The notes under the pieces were generated by a model that saw nothing but the letters and a program-made list of their open reading frames with translations, made no database searches and was not told the origin of the DNA. Source: Nitrospiraceae bacterium (GTDB lineage: Bacteria > Nitrospirota > Nitrospiria > Nitrospirales > UBA2166). Taken from it: a stretch of DNA of 64,000 nucleotides. The position numbers and the translations under genes were made by a program. The first letter of the stretch is position 1. Every line of letters starts with the position of its first letter. The stretch spans positions 66,088 to 130,087 of the forward strand of contig PBSN01000008.1 in assembly GCA_002726235.1 (NCBI GenBank), written 5' to 3'. Shown here piece by piece: positions 36,674 through 44,401 of the stretch.

Positions 36674-37591
36674 TTATTCCTTGTTAAGGACACCGCTAGG
36701 GTTTCTAAGGCCTCCTTGGTCATTGACGGCAGCCTGTCTGGCTTGGAAGTAAGCATCTTGCACAGAGATATAAAAATCAAGCGATGCGGTCTCAATGTTC
36801 GCAAATGATTCAAGATGGAGGGATCGGGCGTTGGTTATCTCGGTACCGTATGTACCATAGCTTAGGACAGTTGGCAAAATCGGGTTTGTGACGGGTGTGT
36901 CAAAGGCAATATAGGTGAGAGGTTCAAGGGCAGTATCGAAAATCAGTCCGATGCTGTCGCGAAGGGATGATGGTCCAAAAAACGGAAGAATAATGTATGG
37001 ACCGGAGCCCATACCCCAGACAGCAAAGGTTTGTCCCGTATCCTCATTACTCGGATCGATACCAACGAATGGATGTGATGCAATGTCATATAGCCCACCG
37101 ATTCCGATGCTGCTGTTGATGGCAAACCGGACGAATTCTCGAGCGGCACCATCAAGTTTTCCTTGCAATATGCTATTGACAAAGCGTCTTGGCATGGCCA
37201 GGTTCGTAAAGACATTTTTGATATTCTGTTGTACAGAGTCTGGCATGATCCAGTCATATCCGCTTGCGAATGGCTTAAAAATAACCCTATCGAAGTAGCG
37301 GTTGAACGCAAATGTTTTGACATTTAACGACTCCCATGGGTCGGGATGAATCGCATTTTGGTCATCCCAGTTTAGTTTCCTTGCATCGGTAAAAGAGGTT
37401 GCAAAGGGATCCTCAAAGGGATCCTCAAAGGTGGTCGGTTGAACATTGATCGCCTTCGTCGGTATTTTTGCAGAACCGGGGGTTGAGGCACATCCAGAGA
37501 AGAAGACGAGAGTGACACTCAACAGCACGATCGACCTGGTAGCGAGTGTTCTTTTTCCAACTGTGTGTTGATATCTCATGCCGCGCCTCAT
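36674..37591 (-). CDS. mlaA: VacJ/MlaA family lipoprotein
   Basis: Lipobox FSGC, DPWESLN, RFAINSSIGIGG, EDTGQT..WG.GSGPY..LPFFGPSSLRD. Confidence 0.92.
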   Translation of the reverse strand: MRRGMRYQHTVGKRTLATRSIVLLSVTLVFFSGCASTPGSAKIPTKAINVQPTTFEDPFEDPFATSFTDARKLNWDDQNAIHPDPWESLNVKTFAFNRYFDRVIFKPFASGYDWIMPDSVQQNIKNVFTNLAMPRRFVNSILQGKLDGAAREFVRFAINSSIGIGGLYDIASHPFVGIDPSNEDTGQTFAVWGMGSGPYIILPFFGPSSLRDSIGLIFDTALEPLTYIAFDTPVTNPILPTVLSYGTYGTEITNARSLHLESFANIETASLDFYISVQDAYFQARQAAVNDQGGLRNPSGVLNKE

Positions 37592-37764
37592 CTCCGTTTC
37601 TCAGCGTGGGTAACGGTGAATCATTTGCGGTTGCAGAGCTATCATACCTCAATCGCTACCGAAGACTGAAGAGTCAATTTTATGATCGAGATCAAGTTTG
37701 CTTGAACCTTGCAAAGGGCCAGGTACTGTGCTAGCGTCTCCATGTTTTTTAGGTGGGGAACTGG

Positions 37765-38199
37765 ATGGCTACTGAGGAGGAAGAAAAAGGTTTCGTTATC
37801 AAAGATCGGCGTGCGCGGTACGGCGACGATGATGAATCGGTCACATCGCAATCTGCGCAATCTGATGGTGGGGCCGCAGAGGAGACGGTCTCTGCTCCAG
37901 TGAACGATACTGCTTCTGGGACTGAAAGGGAAAAGCCAACTCAGCCTCGTGAACTGACATTTCAGTCCTTTGTCTACTCCCTCGCATCCTCGGCTCTGAT
38001 GTTACTGGGAGGAGAGGCAAAAGAGGGTAGCGAACCCACACCGCCGAATCTTCAACAGGCAAGTGAGATCATTCAGATACTGACGTTGCTTCAGGAAAAA
38101 ACAAAGGGCAATCTTGAGGCGGAAGAAGATTCGTTGCTCAAAGATCTGCTCTATACCCTCCGAATTACGTATGTCGAACGGGCCGCGCCGAAACCCTAA
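37765..38199 (+). CDS. DUF1844 domain protein
   Basis: GFVIKDRR N-terminus; L..A...I..L..L.EKTKGNL...E..LL..L.Y.LR..Y. Confidence 0.8.
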   Translation: MATEEEEKGFVIKDRRARYGDDDESVTSQSAQSDGGAAEETVSAPVNDTASGTEREKPTQPRELTFQSFVYSLASSALMLLGGEAKEGSEPTPPNLQQASEIIQILTLLQEKTKGNLEAEEDSLLKDLLYTLRITYVERAAPKP

Positions 38200-38262: not shown

Positions 38263-40137
38263 ATGTTAGTGAAATCGCGTATCGTGGTATCTCCACAATC
38301 TAAGTTAAGCCTTCGGCCGGTCTGGATTACCATTCTGTTTCTGTTGCCATGCCTCGGGCTCACCTATGCCCTGAATGAATGGACTGGCGCCACTCCTTAC
38401 ATTCCAAGCAACATTCTCGTTTTGACGATGGTCAATGTCGACCTAATTCTTCTTGTTCTACTTGCATTGCTTCTCTCACGAAATTTGGTTAAGGCAGTTT
38501 TTGAGCGTCACTACGGTTCCGGGTTCCAGTCAAAACTAATCTTGGCGTTTGTTGGTTTTTCCCTGATCCCGTCAGGGCTCTTGTTTATTGTAGCTAGTGG
38601 GCTGTTGACCAACAGCGTGAATAATTGGTTTAGCATTCAGGTTGAACAGTCATTGAAAGGCGCCCTTGAAGTTGCACAATCCTATTACCAAGATCAGCAA
38701 ACACACATACAGCAAAGTGGACAAGCCATTCGTGATGAGATTGTGCGCCGGAATCTCCTATTGCTACGCCGAGAAAAGGCATTGCGTGTTGCACTTGAAC
38801 GGAAGCGTGTTGAACATGGCCTTGCGGCAGTCGAAGTCTGGTCTCCACACATGGAGCTTCTTGGTTCAGCAACTGATCCGCATTTTCCAGAGGGCGAGTT
38901 AGGGCGCCCGATGGAGCCTGTATTGGAACAAGCCATTGCAGGTGTTCAGGAATTGTTGTTTGAGCCCACATCGTTTGGGAAGCTCATGCTTATCGCTTTA
39001 CCGATTACCTCTTCTTCGACGGCTGCAGTGTCAGCAACAAACACGGCAAATGCTATTGTTGTTGCCTATCGCATATTTCCAGAGTCGGTTGTCGCAAAGG
39101 GTGAAGATATTGTGAGTTCCTATGAAGATTACCGGCAACTTAAAGCGTTTAAAAACCCTATTAAAACGACATATATTGTCTCTTTCGCTGTGATTGCGAT
39201 GGCAATTCTGTTTTCGGCAACTTGGTTCGGCGTCTATCTTGCTCGTCGTATTACTGTGCCAATGGAAAAGTTAGCTGAAGGCACGAAGGCAGTTGCGGCG
39301 GGCAATCTTAGTGTCCACATTGATACGAAGGCTGACGGAGAAATGGGAACGCTTATGGAATCATTTAACACCATGGCCAACGATTTGCGGGTCAGTAACG
39401 CTGAGTTGGTTAAAGCACAGAAAGTGGCAGTGTGGCGAGAGGTTGCCCAACGGATAGCGCATGAGATTAAGAATCCCCTCACACCGATTCAGCTCTCCGC
39501 CCAGCGACTCCGGAAAAAAGTGCTGGAGGGTGCAGATGGGATTCAAGAAACAGTCCAAGACGCGACAGGTATTATCATCAATGAAGTGCAGAGCCTGATG
39601 CGCCTGGTGGATTCATTTTCCACTTTTGCACGAATGCCTGAACCAGTGATGGCGGAAGAATCCCTTCATGATGTGATTCGTGATGTTAGCATGCTCTATA
39701 CGACGTCTCAGCGGGATGTGGAGGTGAATCACAGTTTGGATGATGCCGTTCCCCCGATCTCAATCGATCGGGAACAGATGAAGCGCGTGTTTGTCAACTT
39801 GTTTGAGAACGCGATTGAGGCAATGGATCACAAGGGGAAAATCTGGGTACGAACGCGGTATGATGCTCAGCAACGCAAAGTGTATGTTGAGGTAGAAGAT
39901 GAAGGGAAAGGGATTCGGCCTGAAGACCGGGATCGACTGTTTCTTCCGTATTTTTCAAACACGAAGAATGGAACAGGATTAGGATTAGCGATTGTCAATC
40001 GAATTATCACCGATCACCATGGCCAAATTCGAGTGTTGACTAATGTATCTGTCGGAACGACTTTTTTCATGGAACTGCTCGTAGGGAAGAATGGCGAACA
40101 TGTTGCGGTTGCATCTCAAGGAGTAAACCATGGATAA
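38263..40137 (+). CDS. ntrY: NtrY-like sensor histidine kinase (TM-periplasmic-HAMP-DHp-CA)
   Basis: WREVAQRIAHEIKNPLTPIQLSAQRL H-box, FSTFARMP, N/G1/F/G2 boxes (NLFENA, DEGKG, GTGLGL). Confidence 0.9.
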   Translation: MLVKSRIVVSPQSKLSLRPVWITILFLLPCLGLTYALNEWTGATPYIPSNILVLTMVNVDLILLVLLALLLSRNLVKAVFERHYGSGFQSKLILAFVGFSLIPSGLLFIVASGLLTNSVNNWFSIQVEQSLKGALEVAQSYYQDQQTHIQQSGQAIRDEIVRRNLLLLRREKALRVALERKRVEHGLAAVEVWSPHMELLGSATDPHFPEGELGRPMEPVLEQAIAGVQELLFEPTSFGKLMLIALPITSSSTAAVSATNTANAIVVAYRIFPESVVAKGEDIVSSYEDYRQLKAFKNPIKTTYIVSFAVIAMAILFSATWFGVYLARRITVPMEKLAEGTKAVAAGNLSVHIDTKADGEMGTLMESFNTMANDLRVSNAELVKAQKVAVWREVAQRIAHEIKNPLTPIQLSAQRLRKKVLEGADGIQETVQDATGIIINEVQSLMRLVDSFSTFARMPEPVMAEESLHDVIRDVSMLYTTSQRDVEVNHSLDDAVPPISIDREQMKRVFVNLFENAIEAMDHKGKIWVRTRYDAQQRKVYVEVEDEGKGIRPEDRDRLFLPYFSNTKNGTGLGLAIVNRIITDHHGQIRVLTNVSVGTTFFMELLVGKNGEHVAVASQGVNHG

Positions 40138-40147
40138 AACCGTACTT
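39851..40147 (+). repeat. Direct repeat copy 1 (ntrY 3' end plus dead start of the downstream gene)
   Basis: Aligns by eye with 42631-42867; last 37 nt match 32/37; contains the stub ATG GAT AAA ACC GTA CTT TCG GAC TGA (40130-40156). Confidence 0.8.
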
Positions 40148-40198
40148 TCGGACTGAATCCGAACTTCCTTTTTCGCGGGAAACAGAAATTTACTGCGT

Positions 40199-42238
40199 TC
40201 AAGTATTCACAAGCGGTAAAGGATAGGCGCTTTCGGCAGGTACCATTTGTAAATTGCGCAGGAAGAGTGAGCCGATACTGCGGGCGTTTAAAACCTTCGA
40301 TAAAGTTTTACCCTGTATGTCCAGCAAAAGATCGCATGCTTCACGCCGCTTAGGAGTTTCCACCAGCTTTACCGCCATTCTATTGGTTGAAGGTGTAAAT
40401 CTATCTATAGACTTCTTGGTCAATTCTCCGATGTTTTCCGGAAAACTTACCATTTTTTCCTTCAATTCACAGTCTAATGGGGGGAAAAGTGCTGAGGTAA
40501 AAGTGCTGACATCTTCTAATATCATTTCCGGAATACGTGCAAAAGATGCGATGCTACTTTGAATTGCTGTATCAAAAGCGGACTTATATTCTTTTAGCAA
40601 GATAACGCTGAACAATATGTTCAACTTGTCGAATTCCTGATTGATTAAACGTTGAAAGTTGGTCTCATTGGAAAAGTAGGTTTCGATGTCTTCTGCGCTA
40701 TCAAACCATTCAGCATGGGAAAGCTCATCAAACCGATTAAAAAAAACTGCTATGAGGCTCTGGTTTGCGTTTGGAGGCGAGCAAGTCCTCTGAGTGATTT
40801 CCAAAATATTGCGAAAGACATCTATAGGGTTGATGCCATAAAACTGGGCTACTTTCAGGAGCGGTTTGTAAATATTTAAATTCCAGCAGAAATCAATTAG
40901 GAAATGCAATTTCCTAAAATAAAATAACTCTGACTCTCTCATCGTATTAGTCTCTCGTACACTCTCTTCATATTCGAAGGCATGCAGTGTTGACCCGTCA
41001 GAGCACCTGTATATTCCCGCGTCTCCATGGATGAGCCTAAACCGAGTTTTGAATCCAAACTCTTTGCGCGTTTGAGTCGAATTGGTTTCGGCCCCGGCAA
41101 GTAGACGGATGTTGTGGGTATATATAATATCAACGCCAATATCGAGAAGTTCTCTTAATGCGTCTTCATGACTTTCCTTGGTTTCACCACCCATTGGAAT
41201 GATCAATTCAGAAAACGTGTCCGACCCCATATTGCGAAATTTTTCATGGTAGTCAATATAGGTGTTCAAGGAGATATTAGAGCGTTTGATATTTTTCAAA
41301 ACCTGCTCATTCAAACTCTGAACAGACATGAAAACTACGACCATGTCCCCGAGTATTTCACCGATCTCAATGTTTCTTTGGCTGACGTTTTTGGCCATCC
41401 AAATATGGCATCTATGAGGATATCCCGTCGAATCCTTGACACGCCGAATAGCTCTAGCAATTTCAATATCACGCGGGAAAATTCCAAAATTGGCATCGCA
41501 GATGATCCAGTTTTTCGCCTGAGTCCTCTGACCCACGTAATCGACTTCAGCCAAAGTAGTGTCCACATCAAAACGGCTGATTCGGTCTTTAGAAGCAGCG
41601 CCCCATGCACAGAATGTACACTTGTATGGGCAACCGCGGTTGCTTTCGAACATTGGGACCATTCCGGCTTCGAGAAATTCATCTAAATAACCATTCAGGT
41701 ACGGTGAGGGAATATTGGTTATTATTTTCTTAAGAGGGCGAACTCCATTCGAAAGGATTTCTTTCCCATCACGCCAAACAATATTTTGCGGCAAATGGTT
41801 ATAGTCATGGTTGCTTTCACGCCACCAGGTAACTAGTTCGGAAAAGGGTTCCTCTCCACTATCGATAACAAGGAAATTCAAGTACTGATGCCGGTTGAGA
41901 AAAGCGAGGCGTCTTTCTTGGTCTGGATCGATATTAGGGCCTCCGGCCACAATCAGTGCATTTGGTAGAGTTTTTCTGATGTATCCGCCTACCGACCTAT
42001 TCAAAGTTTCGTTCCAACCATAGTTTGAAAGCCCTACGATATCAGGGCGTTCTTCCACGATTTTGGAAAGGAGTTTTTCGGGATGCTTGAATAAGGTGAT
42101 GTCGACGTTGGAGCCATGCATAGCTGTGGCATAGGATTTTATATAACCAATGTTTAGAGGGGTTAACAACGAATCGTTTTGAACGGAATGGGTGTGGGCC
42201 AAGTCAGCTAGAAAAATTTTGGTCGCTTTTTTCATCAT
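40199..42238 (-). CDS. Cobalamin-binding radical SAM enzyme
   Basis: B12-binding domain (DIVGLSNYGWN, VAGGPN, GEEPF), RGCPYKCTFCAWG CxxxCxxC, DANFG; visibly AT-richer than its flanks. Confidence 0.9.
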   Translation of the reverse strand: MMKKATKIFLADLAHTHSVQNDSLLTPLNIGYIKSYATAMHGSNVDITLFKHPEKLLSKIVEERPDIVGLSNYGWNETLNRSVGGYIRKTLPNALIVAGGPNIDPDQERRLAFLNRHQYLNFLVIDSGEEPFSELVTWWRESNHDYNHLPQNIVWRDGKEILSNGVRPLKKIITNIPSPYLNGYLDEFLEAGMVPMFESNRGCPYKCTFCAWGAASKDRISRFDVDTTLAEVDYVGQRTQAKNWIICDANFGIFPRDIEIARAIRRVKDSTGYPHRCHIWMAKNVSQRNIEIGEILGDMVVVFMSVQSLNEQVLKNIKRSNISLNTYIDYHEKFRNMGSDTFSELIIPMGGETKESHEDALRELLDIGVDIIYTHNIRLLAGAETNSTQTRKEFGFKTRFRLIHGDAGIYRCSDGSTLHAFEYEESVRETNTMRESELFYFRKLHFLIDFCWNLNIYKPLLKVAQFYGINPIDVFRNILEITQRTCSPPNANQSLIAVFFNRFDELSHAEWFDSAEDIETYFSNETNFQRLINQEFDKLNILFSVILLKEYKSAFDTAIQSSIASFARIPEMILEDVSTFTSALFPPLDCELKEKMVSFPENIGELTKKSIDRFTPSTNRMAVKLVETPKRREACDLLLDIQGKTLSKVLNARSIGSLFLRNLQMVPAESAYPLPLVNT

Positions 42239-42248
42239 TTGATTAGCT

Positions 42249-42259
42249 GGGGGGGGGGG
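42249..42259. repeat. G11 homopolymer tract
   Basis: 11 consecutive G (C11 on the coding strand), 10 nt upstream of the radical SAM ATG. Confidence 0.85.
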
Positions 42260-42630
42260 CTTAGGAGGAATTTACGCTGACAGTTAGGTTTCGCGATCAA
42301 GATGCTTTGCGCTATTTTAAGCAGCCATTTTTCATTTTTTGTTAACTTAGCTTAAGTAAGGTTTTCATTGAAAAGTAAAAAATCTTTGAAGCTTGTCTCG
42401 AGTAGGAAAGTATCTCTTGAAGCTCAAACCTTTGTTCGAATTCGCGCCAAAGTATAACATTTATTTGCCTTTCTTTGAAGACACGGTTTTTTAAAAAAGA
42501 AATTTTAAATTGACTGAAAGTGTATCTATTTTGGAGAAATTTGCTCTTAGCACTGGATCAACTTTACACGCCGTGGTCTCTTTGCTACCTTCAGACTATT
42601 CCAGAATGATCCTTTGAATTCTTTTTTCTA

Positions 42631-42867
42631 AACACGCTGTGATGCTCACGTAAAATGCATGTTGAGGCAGTAGGTAAAAGAAAATCGATTCGAATCAGTG
42701 ATCGTCAACGGCATTATCATTAATCACCATGGTCAGATTTGAGTTTTTCTCAATGTATCGAAATGTATCGAGCAGAATGACTTTTGCGATGGGGATGCTT
42801 GTAAGGGAGAGTGGTGGATATATCACGGCTGCATCTCACGGAGTAGACCATGGGTGAAACCGTGCTT
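42631..42867 (+). repeat. Direct repeat copy 2 (decayed ntrY 3' end with an internal deletion, plus the functional RBS/start of REC-lpxC)
   Basis: GATGCTCA..ATGTTGAGG, GTGATCGTCAACGGCATTATCATTAATCACCATGG and GCATCTCACGGAGTAGACCATGG all match the ntrY tail. Confidence 0.8.
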
Positions 42868-44112
42868 ATTGTCGACGACGAGACCGCAATTCTGGAGTCT
42901 GTTTCCGGCATTCTACAAGACGAAGGGTTTAGTGTTGTGGCTGCGAATTGCAGTCGTGACGCCTTGGCCATGATCAAGAAGTGTAATCCGTCACTTGTTC
43001 TCCTTGATGTCTGGATGCCAGATGAGGATGGCTTGACACTTTTAACGCGGCTCAAGACTTTGAGGCCGAACATGCCGGTGATCTTGATTACCGGTCATGG
43101 GACTATTGATACAGCTGTTCGTGCCATTCGACTTGGCGCTGTGGACTTTCTCGAAAAGCCTCTTTCATTAGACGGTCTTGTTCAAGCTGTCAAAGGAGCA
43201 ATTGGGAATGAAGTGACCAAGGTGGATGTGTTGCCCGTAAGCCAGACTGTCAAAAATCGCTATCGTGGTAGCAAAAGAGTATCGTCAGTGCCGCAACGAA
43301 CAGTGGCTAAGAGTGTCGTGATAGGGGGAGTGGGGTTACACAGTGGTGTACGAACTGGCCTGATTTTGCAACCACTCGGATTGAACAATGGGATTCGATT
43401 TAGCAGTCTTGCTGGTGATGGCGTGGTTGAGGCCCATCTTGATAATGTCGACTTGACTGGATATGCCACCACGCTTCTCAAAGATGGGATGCGAGTACGC
43501 ACAGTGGAACATTTCATGTCGTCGTTGCACGCTTATGGTATTACAAATCTTTTGGTGAAAGTTGAAGGAGAACTTCCAATTCTTGATGGTTCTGCCAGCG
43601 AATTTTGCGAATTACTTGAGTCCGCTGGCATTGAAGAACAAGCGGGGACCTTGCCACAGATTGTCATCAAAGAACCAATTAGTGTGACAGACGGATTAGA
43701 TGCCGAGATCTCGATTAGCCCGTATGAGGGATTTAAGATCACCTACGAACTCTCTCATCCACCTCCCGTTGGCGATCAAACATACACCTTTGAACTAGAC
43801 TCACCTGCTGCCTTCTGTAACGAAATTGCCCCGGCGCGTACCTTCGGATTTTTAAATGAGGTGAGTGAATTGGAAGAAATGGGACTGGCCAAGGGGGGGA
43901 AACTCGACAACGTCATTCTCGTTTCAGATCACGGAGTGATTAATACCCCACTGCGGTTTTTAGAGGAATTTGCTCGCCACAAAATTCTCGACATCATAGG
44001 AGATTTTTATTTACTCGGACGGCCAATCAGCGGTGCAGTTCATGCACGAAAAACTGGCCATACCGAAAACATTGCACTGCTACGAAAAATTCGAGAAACC
44101 ATGAAACTCTAG
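42850..44112 (+). CDS. lpxC: Response-regulator receiver domain fused to UDP-3-O-acyl-GlcNAc deacetylase (REC-LpxC)
   Basis: aa 1-120 NtrX-like REC (IVDDE, LLDVWMP, ITGHG, FLEKP); from about aa 148 LpxC (QRTV, GVGLHSG, TVEH, ELPILDGSA, EIAPARTFGF, RHKILDIIGD, TGH). Confidence 0.93.
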   Translation: MGETVLIVDDETAILESVSGILQDEGFSVVAANCSRDALAMIKKCNPSLVLLDVWMPDEDGLTLLTRLKTLRPNMPVILITGHGTIDTAVRAIRLGAVDFLEKPLSLDGLVQAVKGAIGNEVTKVDVLPVSQTVKNRYRGSKRVSSVPQRTVAKSVVIGGVGLHSGVRTGLILQPLGLNNGIRFSSLAGDGVVEAHLDNVDLTGYATTLLKDGMRVRTVEHFMSSLHAYGITNLLVKVEGELPILDGSASEFCELLESAGIEEQAGTLPQIVIKEPISVTDGLDAEISISPYEGFKITYELSHPPPVGDQTYTFELDSPAAFCNEIAPARTFGFLNEVSELEEMGLAKGGKLDNVILVSDHGVINTPLRFLEEFARHKILDIIGDFYLLGRPISGAVHARKTGHTENIALLRKIRETMKL

Positions 44113-44139
44113 TAGAATGTTCAAATGGCAACAATGATT

Positions 44140-44313
44140 ATTGTTCTCCGTCGCCGCAACCATCTTCTGCGAGCGTCGTACTTCACTTCGCGTTCACGAA
44201 CTGCTTTGGTCCATCGCCATCATCGGAACTCACTAGGACACTTAGCGCAGGTGGTGCAGACCTTCGGCACCGTCCGGTTCTACTAAAGCTCGCTCGTCGA
44301 TCCTAGTACGCAC
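44140..44313 (-). mobile_element. Probable truncated 5' fragment (domain I) of a group II intron; left boundary approximate
   Basis: Minus strand starts GTGCG at 44313, then an ACTAGGA/TCCTAGT-closed multi-stem with a GGTGC/GCACC hairpin and an AAAGC..GTGAACGCGAAGTGAA segment; no domain V or RT ORF. Recognised from memory only. Confidence 0.45.
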
Positions 44314-44401
44314 AATCTGCACAATTGATAATCCCCATAATTGCCCTTCTTAAGGGAGCGAAACGATGATAATCGTGTCGTTGGAAAACCATCGAGTGCA
44401 A

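Follow-up and report, generated by a model that had tools for sequence, protein, structure and literature searches.

LpxC, a validated antibiotic target, determines how much flux enters lipid A, and a detailed grasp of how its level or activity is matched to the needs of the envelope is limited to Escherichia coli and, in part, Pseudomonas aeruginosa. The stretch of DNA analysed here (the window) comprises 64,000 nt from the assembly GCA_002726235.1 of a Nitrospiraceae bacterium (contig PBSN01000008.1, positions 66,088-130,087); the source genome has 1.87 Mb in 27 contigs and is 90.65% complete. At positions 38263-44112 of the window, the list of open reading frames (ORFs) and Pfam matches place three genes, which code for an NtrY-like sensor histidine kinase, a radical SAM protein on the opposite strand, and a fusion of a receiver (REC) domain with LpxC (Table 1). 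The fusion protein is very probably a real hybrid response regulator that also is the working LpxC of the cell and the partner of the NtrY-like kinase.

The 420-aa fusion protein matches two Pfam families alone, Response_reg (PF00072) at residues 5-115 (2e-31; 108.8 bits, cut-off 30.2) and LpxC (PF03331) at residues 149-414 (1.6e-82; 277.5 bits, cut-off 27), and no Pfam match to an AAA+ or helix-turn-helix (HTH) domain was found in it. The LpxC part also scores above the lpxC equivalog cut-off (NCBIfam TIGR00325, 243.2 bits against 187.25). A further NCBIfam model, NF009667 for the bifunctional LpxC/FabZ, matches partially, and solely within the LpxC part (206.8 bits, cut-off 465). The top NCBIfam match of the receiver is the NtrX equivalog NF051870, a partial match with 126.5 bits against a cut-off of 600. 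Because this score is far under the cut-off and the AAA+ and HTH domains are absent, the sequence identifies the protein as a descendant of NtrX and not as a member of NtrX itself. The nearest solved relatives of the receiver are the NtrC-family receiver 1zit and the Fis-family regulator entries 4d6x and 5m7n; we take these entries to represent Aquifex NtrC4 and Brucella NtrX. The LpxC part aligns over its entire length with P. aeruginosa LpxC, of which structures have been solved (2.2e-54), and the TVEH, HKILD, and TGH motifs match.

In the translation, the receiver contains D9, D10, and E11, D53 within LLDVWMP, T81, and K103-P104, of which D9, D10, D53, T81, and K103 are presumably the functional residues. 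Similarly, we assume for the LpxC part the zinc ligands (His, His, Asp) and the catalytic Glu and His assigned in work on the E. coli and P. aeruginosa enzymes. An alignment of 121 fusion proteins, whose members are 51-92% identical to the window protein, has D9, D10, D53, K103, E220, H221, H377, K378, D381, D385, and H404 as invariant positions. Position 81 is Ser in at least 90% of the aligned proteins and Thr in the window protein. In an AlphaFold model built on 121 relatives, the window protein reaches a mean predicted local distance difference test (pLDDT) score of 86.2 and a predicted template modelling score (pTM) of 0.84, and its LpxC part superimposes on solved LpxC structures with target-normalised template modelling scores of 0.90-0.94 and root-mean-square deviations of 1.7-2.0. 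Residues 121-143 of the linker have pLDDT values below 50. Thus, the initial annotation of this DNA, which had described an intact NtrX-type receiver joined to a complete LpxC with its motifs and devoid of an AAA+ or HTH output domain, is borne out by Pfam, NCBIfam, the residue check, and the structural model. The short basic linker that it had also described is basic in the window protein, but its length and sequence vary across the family (25-51 aa in 32 short forms).

Table 1. Features of the kinase and REC-LpxC locus, with positions in the window
Feature	Position	Strand	Evidence
NtrY-like sensor histidine kinase, 624 aa	38263..40137	+	Pfam, hydropathy scan
Junction copy A: ntrY 3' end and remnant REC start	39977..40147	+	Alignment with copy B
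Segment separating the junction copies, low G+C	40148..42686		G+C, genus comparison
B12-binding radical SAM protein, 679 aa	40199..42238	-	Pfam B12-binding and Radical_SAM
Junction copy B: decayed ntrY 3' fragment, stops upstream	42687..42867	+	Alignment with copy A
REC-LpxC hybrid response regulator, 420 aa	42850..44112	+	Pfam, NCBIfam, AlphaFold, genus relatives
REC domain, residues 5-115, NtrX/NtrC4 type; D9 D10, D53, T81, K103	42862..43194	+	Pfam, NCBIfam, solved structures
Linker, residues ~121-146, basic here, predicted disordered	43210..43287	+	pLDDT, family alignment
LpxC domain, residues 149-414; E220 H221, H377 K378 D381 D385, H404; without C-terminal tail	43294..44091	+	Pfam, NCBIfam, structure comparison

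The same uninterrupted REC-LpxC ORF is present in all four other genomes of the genus (83-91% identity), and the junction between REC, linker, and LpxC is bridged without an insertion or deletion by contigs of two independent DNA runs (X2, 42486-43720; X5, 42747-43383). Misassembly at this junction is therefore excluded, and a stop codon or assembly error between the domains, which the initial annotation had considered, was looked for and not found. The whole stretch, or at least half of its sampled words, occurs in 10 sequencing runs, and parts of it occur in 20 runs of 14 studies; all of these runs are marine, seawater, or hydrothermal-vent samples. A profile search of the source genome found a single LpxC match, the fused gene, and one match each for LpxB, LpxK, and LpxD. 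This answers the question, also raised initially, whether the fused gene is the only lpxC of the genome. In nine of ten other genomes with the fusion, the fused gene likewise is the sole LpxC match, and the tenth (G049) has an additional partial match. Hence, the fused gene is predicted to be the working LpxC of the cell and to have deacetylase activity. The presence of LapB was examined with PF18073, which gave one match in the source genome (contig C25, a 494-aa frame); as this model also matches 10 of 14 control genomes, including Gram-positives, the result is uninformative.

The kinase has Pfam matches to NtrY_N (29.9 bits, cut-off 23.2), HAMP, HisKA, and HATPase_c. According to its hydropathy profile, four hydrophobic segments (residues ~19-38, 50-72, 93-115, and 303-325) flank a loop of ~180 aa; His400 is the H-box histidine. 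No Pfam match to a PAS domain was found in the window kinase, whose HAMP domain ends at residue 376 and whose HisKA domain starts at 392. By comparison, PAS was present in all 11 related kinases scanned, and those encoded beside fusions have 734-794 aa. The term NtrY-like, also chosen in the initial annotation, is used because the domains named above are present and the PAS domain of NtrY proper is missing. Just upstream of the kinase gene, at 36674-38199, Pfam identifies mlaA, which codes for an outer-membrane lipid asymmetry lipoprotein and lies on the minus strand, and a DUF1844 gene. The adjacency of the DUF1844 gene and ntrY is kept in one relative of the same genus (G004), but not in another (G001).

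Genetic linkage makes the NtrY-like kinase the likely partner of the fusion protein. Of 38 fused loci, eight have flanks too short to judge adjacency; among the other 30, the fusion directly follows ntrY in 13 (11 short and two long forms, as defined below), which belong to several phyla. In other phyla, the upstream neighbours differ from those in the window, and the setting often is ruvC-ruvA-ruvB-ntrY-fusion (L017, L022, L029; ruvA-ruvB in L020 and L025) or DUF4390-ntrY-fusion (L018, L038). The source genome encodes six REC ORFs, five HATPase_c matches, and two strong sigma54-activator ORFs. The HATPase_c matches on contigs C16 and C25 adjoin REC genes of their own, and others are located on C15 and C1. 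Neither of the sigma54-activator ORFs (on C3 and C23) carries a REC domain, so the genome encodes no NtrX. For a bacterium that lives freely, this is a very small set of signalling genes.

From a duplicated junction, the initial annotation had also proposed an earlier position of the fusion gene directly behind ntrY, with an overlap of the ntrY stop codon. In the two junction copies, 131 of 170 ungapped alignment columns are identical. Copy A retains a remnant REC start codon at 40130, which opens a short ORF ending at 40156 and overlapping the ntrY stop, and in copy B the true ATG of the fusion at 42850 overlaps the TGA stop of the decayed ntrY fragment. Such an overlap of start and stop, found in both copies, is the hallmark of translationally coupled genes. 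Between the copies, the G+C content is 0.417, as compared to 0.474 and 0.476 in the two flanking genes. Wider flanks were compared in three of the four genus relatives (G001, G002, and G004). In G001, ntrY and the REC-lpxC gene are ~90 bp apart and the junction is not duplicated. In G002, the distance is ~360 bp, and the two copies of a duplicated junction enclose a pilin-like fragment. In G004, as in the window, the radical SAM gene lies between ntrY and REC-lpxC. Thus, ntrY adjoins the fusion gene without an intervening radical SAM gene in two of the three relatives, and this layout together with the duplicated junction supports the proposed ancestral arrangement. These comparisons indicate that an operon of ntrY and REC-lpxC was split recently, within the genus, by a 2.5-kb segment of low G+C content.

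Where the window has the radical SAM gene, the minus strand of the G002 locus (L016, 8380-8740) contains ~330 bp with a fragment of a prepilin-like N-terminal motif, and repeated insertion or remodelling seems to have taken place at the junction. The top NCBIfam match of the radical SAM protein is a KedN5-family C-methyltransferase (175 bits, under the cut-off of 700), and its gene is cargo of the inserted segment, outside the signalling pair. A run of 11 G at 42249-42259 lies 11-21 nt upstream of the start of this gene on the minus strand, and the X2 and X5 contigs are one G shorter. Either the tract is prone to slippage, or the difference could stem from a sequencing error in the homopolymer.

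The initial annotation had left open whether the architecture and its synteny with ntrY recur elsewhere, or whether no other genome has the fusion. The fusion is widespread, and its adjacency to ntrY recurs, as described above for genus relatives and for the family loci. The 120 best relatives that the window protein has in the database each contain both Pfam domains (417-447 aa). Where named, they are called just LpxC, and they stem from Nitrospirales, Binatia, Dadabacteria, or 'Deltaproteobacteria'. Among the member names of 10 clusters, no cultured carrier of the fusion was found. In a scan of species-representative genomes, of which the best 80 loci were kept, 28 loci contained the short form seen in the window, 10 contained a long form in a single ORF, and 42 contained a free-standing lpxC. 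The long form (~670-750 aa) consists of REC, a sigma54-type AAA+ domain, an AAA lid, sometimes an HTH domain, and LpxC, and was found in Nitrospinota, Desulfomonile, and Syntrophaceae. In Nitrospinota, the long architecture prevails, and the best 120 relatives of one long protein (L035) all share it. A Walker-A-like motif is retained in the long forms, whereas the GAFTGA motif and the Walker B DE of genuine NtrX-like regulators are missing, and their Sigma54_activat scores are 36-81 bits as compared to 220-246 in the genuine regulators. An HTH_8-like stretch precedes LpxC directly in three of seven aligned long forms (L038, L035, L028). The ntrY gene sits directly upstream of the long fusions L038 and L040, and in three of three long-form genomes (G046-G048) the fused gene is the sole LpxC match. 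Loci of the L038 type had alternatively been read as ntrY, a separate regulator, and a free-standing lpxC; this reading was rejected, as they contain single ORFs of ~700 aa. Among the 42 free-standing loci, eight show the gene order lpxC-ntrY-ntrX. The regulator in these clusters is a REC-Sigma54_activat-HTH_8 protein, with the Pfam architecture verified for L058 and L079.

After clustering at 50% identity, 37 of the best 150 representatives were classified as fused by length and matched ranges (16 short with one full-length stretch, six short with two stretches, and 15 long). Four cluster representatives (P0271, P0276, P0279, and P0280; 535-615 aa) have a C-terminal LpxC of the fused type that is 48-54% identical and a long N-terminal part unlike the window receiver, and may represent further architectures of the family. 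In loci of the Nitrospinota type, the neighbours of long fusions include purN just downstream (L038, L050, L052), followed by lolA (L038, L050), and a gene for an RseP-like M50 protease (L050, L051). The purN-adjacent lolA and the protease gene are further envelope genes beside long fusions. Two fusions carry unexpected taxon labels, namely Promethearchaeota archaeon for the 3.2-kb contig of a long fusion (L028) and Enterobacteriaceae for the 4.4-kb contig of a short one (L042); because both group with deltaproteobacterial or Binatia sequences, these labels probably are binning errors.

In a quick tree of LpxC domains, all 43 fused sequences (33 short and 10 long) fall into a single clade, from which 49 free-standing ones are separate, with 100 in the Shimodaira-Hasegawa-like approximate likelihood ratio test (SH-aLRT). 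A careful tree of 50 rows, which leaves out L040, L043, L046, and 39 free-standing rows, supports the fused clade with 100/99. Short and long forms are intermixed in this clade. The short forms, a group defined like the long one by architecture, were monophyletic in 0 of 200 bootstrap LpxC trees. Forcing their monophyly costs 41.5 log-likelihood units, and the approximately unbiased (AU) test, made after the quick tree was seen, gave p 0.025. In a tree of the receivers, which has 120 columns and is weak, the fusion receivers group with NtrX-like receivers encoded behind ntrY (SH-aLRT 91), and 29 of 31 short forms fall together (SH-aLRT 80). We read these trees as reflecting a single ancestral fusion of ntrX and lpxC, which was followed by the loss of the AAA+ and HTH domains; the number of losses is not settled by the trees. 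As the fused clade includes decayed long forms, and unfused lpxC-ntrY-ntrX clusters also exist, the window protein is the reduced end of an ntrX-lpxC gene fusion, reached via longer intermediates.

Within the fused clade, the genus of the source organism forms a long branch, distant from the free-standing LpxC proteins that other families of its order have and that are 37-44% identical to the window LpxC. Among 401 sampled Nitrospirota genomes, 38 (the source genome included) have a full-length match at E <= 1e-90. Nearly all of these matches belong to a single further family, f20 (34 of 64 genomes), with 2 of 35 in f25, one in f43, and none of 75 in f2 and of 40 in f3. The simplest reading of these distributions is that the genus acquired the fusion horizontally, together with the kinase. 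In sum, the fusion, its residues, and its linkage to ntrY stand as initially described, and the fused gene is the sole LpxC match of the genome, but the fusion is not the isolated oddity it had appeared to be and belongs to a wider family of NtrX-LpxC fusions. The still wider interpretation has about an even chance of being correct in our estimate. By it, the family would be an undescribed class of response regulators with LpxC output, which replaces the protease-based control known from E. coli, arose once by a read-through fusion of ntrX and lpxC, lost its parts for sigma54 activation and DNA binding, and spread across phyla, reaching this genus as well.

The mechanism of the fusion protein may be pictured as follows. 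The PAS-less NtrY-like membrane kinase would sense an envelope or periplasmic cue and phosphorylate Asp53 of the receiver. Phosphorylation would then alter the packing that the receiver, on its flexible linker, adopts on the LpxC domain, and the altered packing would change deacetylase activity in the way the CheB receiver gates its esterase. Phosphorylation-dependent gating of LpxC catalysis, the mechanism that we favour, is a tentative proposal by analogy, to which we give slightly less than an even chance; both the phosphotransfer from the NtrY-like kinase and the effect of phosphorylation on LpxC are what we infer. The receiver appears to be under selection for phosphorylation, since the phosphorylation residues are invariant in the 121 proteins while the AAA+ module decayed. 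Structure prediction hints at a defined, CheB-like mutual packing of the REC and LpxC domains. For a fusion protein from Holophagae that is 47% identical to the window protein, pTM is 0.78 and all five AlphaFold models concur (pLDDT 86.5-87.5). Because LpxC makes up only ~65% of the chain, this value and the 0.84 of the window protein are above the expectation for a freely placed receiver. A complex prediction of LpxC (residues 145-420) with REC (residues 1-120), made without control runs, scored 0.03 and 0.01 against a mark of 0.32 and speaks neither for nor against docking.

Several observations weigh against the gating mechanism or against the pairing with the kinase. The remaining four models of the window protein are weaker (mean pLDDT 75.9-81.8). 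In the long forms, ~300 residues of the AAA+ module separate REC from LpxC, and this spacer and the variable, disordered linker argue against one conserved direct contact between REC and LpxC throughout the family. Seventeen of the 30 judgeable loci have no ntrY upstream of the fusion. In five of five genomes where the fusion lies away from ntrY, an NtrY-like gene is present elsewhere, and in two of these five it is followed by an ORF for an NtrX-like receiver, so the fusion protein may be a second target of the kinase in such genomes. In the window itself, a distance of 2.7 kb and a gene on the opposite strand separate the kinase and fusion genes, which thus are no longer co-transcribed. A scan of positions 40100-44400 found three promoter-like sites where 7.5 were expected and none above chance upstream of the fusion. 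Terminator-like sites in the same region also were not above chance (four, with 3.9 expected). Four of five RNA runs hold next to none of the stretch, and the metatranscriptome X20 yields four short contigs. Only one of them, of 190 nt (42815-43004), overlaps the fusion gene, and it may be DNA carry-over. These contigs are too scant for a claim of expression or of a transcript start.

Instead of catalysis, the receiver might govern the lifetime of LpxC. Phosphorylation would then unmask or conceal a signal for degradation, or bring in an adaptor or a protease such as Lon, ClpXP, or FtsH, in replacement of the enterobacterial C-terminal degron. We know of no protease adaptor that recognises NtrX-type receivers, and the pTM values of 0.84 and 0.78, which suggest defined packing, fit control of activity at least equally well. 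Control of stability would be in line with the missing C-terminal extension. Relative to the end of the LpxC profile, which was built from fused proteins, the C-terminal end lies at a median of -1 aa in 43 fused LpxCs and of +24 aa in 49 free-standing ones, and the fused family seems to have swapped one control device, a C-terminal degron tail, for another. The long disordered linker could also be an entry site for a protease. Moreover, proteolysis is the best-known control of LpxC, exerted by FtsH and LapB in E. coli and suggested to involve Lon for alphaproteobacterial LpxC (PMC12444477, accessible text). On balance, we consider regulated stability unlikely.

Alternatively, phosphorylation could alter the oligomeric state or the location of the protein, where dimerisation or tethering to the membrane kinase would change access to the lipid substrate or to other enzymes of the Raetz pathway. 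Receivers of the NtrC family signal by rearranging dimers, and the window receiver is of the NtrC4/NtrX type. The decayed AAA+ oligomerisation module that long forms keep between REC and LpxC suggests that the ancestral signal passed through the assembly state and not through direct contact of REC and LpxC. The short forms, however, dropped this module and kept the receiver, and the solved LpxC entries are known as single-chain enzymes. This alternative is quite unlikely in our view.

Still less weight is given to the possibility that the receiver no longer regulates at all. It would be improbable that the receiver is a frozen relic of the fusion or a mere phosphate sink beside a constitutive LpxC, even though the parts of the ancestral NtrX transcription factor decayed stepwise, so that functional decay is ongoing in the family, and the operon is broken in the source genome. 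The five phosphorylation residues are invariant or conserved as Thr/Ser in proteins with identities down to 51%, and the receiver is kept in 43 of 43 fused LpxCs; a relic would have changed at the phosphorylation sites as the AAA+ module did. Also, a pure sink need not have stayed fused to an essential enzyme across several phyla. Finally, an assembly or gene-calling artefact joining a separate regulator and lpxC has practically no chance of being correct, because nothing was found in its favour; the one record (L046 7001-8259, 'delta proteobacterium') in which receiver and LpxC lie in different frames looks like a frameshift, sequencing, or assembly error of that record, whereas the continuous ORF in the other four genus genomes, the presence of both domains in the best 120 relatives, and the independent contigs across the junction all contradict it.

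With a receiver in cis on the sole LpxC, a membrane sensor would be tied to the synthesis of outer-membrane lipid more directly than in any case so far. The output is a new type for a known kind of protein, a response regulator with enzymatic output, in a wide and apparently undescribed family. Separate genes, a full NtrX-LpxC fusion, forms with decayed AAA+, and the minimal REC-LpxC make up a graded series, which documents the transition from transcription factor to enzyme regulator with unusual completeness. The short form is small and looks soluble, and the question is accessible to standard assays. No paper describing a REC-LpxC fusion was found in the literature searched, in agreement with the initial annotation, which knew of no characterised example; subscription journals and supplements could hold a mention. 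In the accessible text of a 2025 review of lipid A regulation, the terms 'fusion', 'receiver', and 'response regulator' have 0 occurrences each, and LpxC regulation outside E. coli and partly P. aeruginosa is called still emerging (PMC12444477).

The closest known counterpart of the window kinase and receiver is NtrY/NtrX of Brucella, Rhodobacter sphaeroides, and Caulobacter crescentus. It resembles the kinase in the NtrY_N, HAMP, HisKA, and HATPase domains and the receiver in the NtrX type, and it has effects on the envelope. The output of NtrY/NtrX, however, is DNA binding via AAA+ and HTH, whereas in the window the output would be the enzyme itself, and the kinase lacks PAS. According to the available text of the respective report, an R. 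sphaeroides ntrYX mutant has lpxC mRNA increased 8.8-fold and more lipopolysaccharide; no NtrX site was found upstream of lpxC, and the NtrYX effect is transcriptional and called indirect (PMC7240162). In C. crescentus, NtrYX likewise represses lpxC transcription, as summarised in the accessible part of the 2025 review (PMC12444477). From the repression of lpxC transcription in these two alphaproteobacteria, and by analogy only, phosphorylated REC may lower the output of LpxC. In Desulfovibrio vulgaris, lpxC is the single mapped target of the regulator DVU2934 (kinase DVU2931), and in Syntrophobacter fumaroxidans lpxC adjoins an operon orthologous to this system, as stated in the accessible portion of the source (PMC3333781). 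This system shares the linkage of two-component genes and lpxC with the eight lpxC-ntrY-ntrX clusters described above; it differs in exerting transcriptional control by separate proteins, and was set beside the window proteins by description. The accessible text of a bioRxiv preprint on HD-GYP proteins mentions the DVU2933 operon only.

Post-translational control of LpxC as the flux-setting step is also known from FtsH, LapB, and YejM in E. coli, where the C-terminal tail of LpxC is the FtsH degron, and from activation by MurA in P. aeruginosa (PMC12444477, accessible text). These systems act through separate partners and, in E. coli, through the C-terminal degron, whereas the fused family has no tail and carries its regulator in cis. 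The bifunctional LpxC/FabZ is an LpxC fusion too, but its partner is a C-terminal metabolic enzyme and not an N-terminal signalling domain. The long NtrX-LpxC fusions share the LpxC clade and the receiver type with the window protein, which has lost the remnants of AAA+ and HTH. With respect to its construction, the fusion protein is most readily compared to CheB, PleD/WspR, and RpfG, in whose single chain a flexible linker likewise joins a receiver to a catalytic domain. The receiver of CheB gates its active site, and such gating is a proposal for REC-LpxC. The enzyme in the window also differs from these regulators in that it is a zinc deacetylase, belongs to a biosynthetic pathway that is essential, and has no second copy in the cell. 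If the proposal is true, LpxC joins the short list of enzymatic outputs of response regulators.

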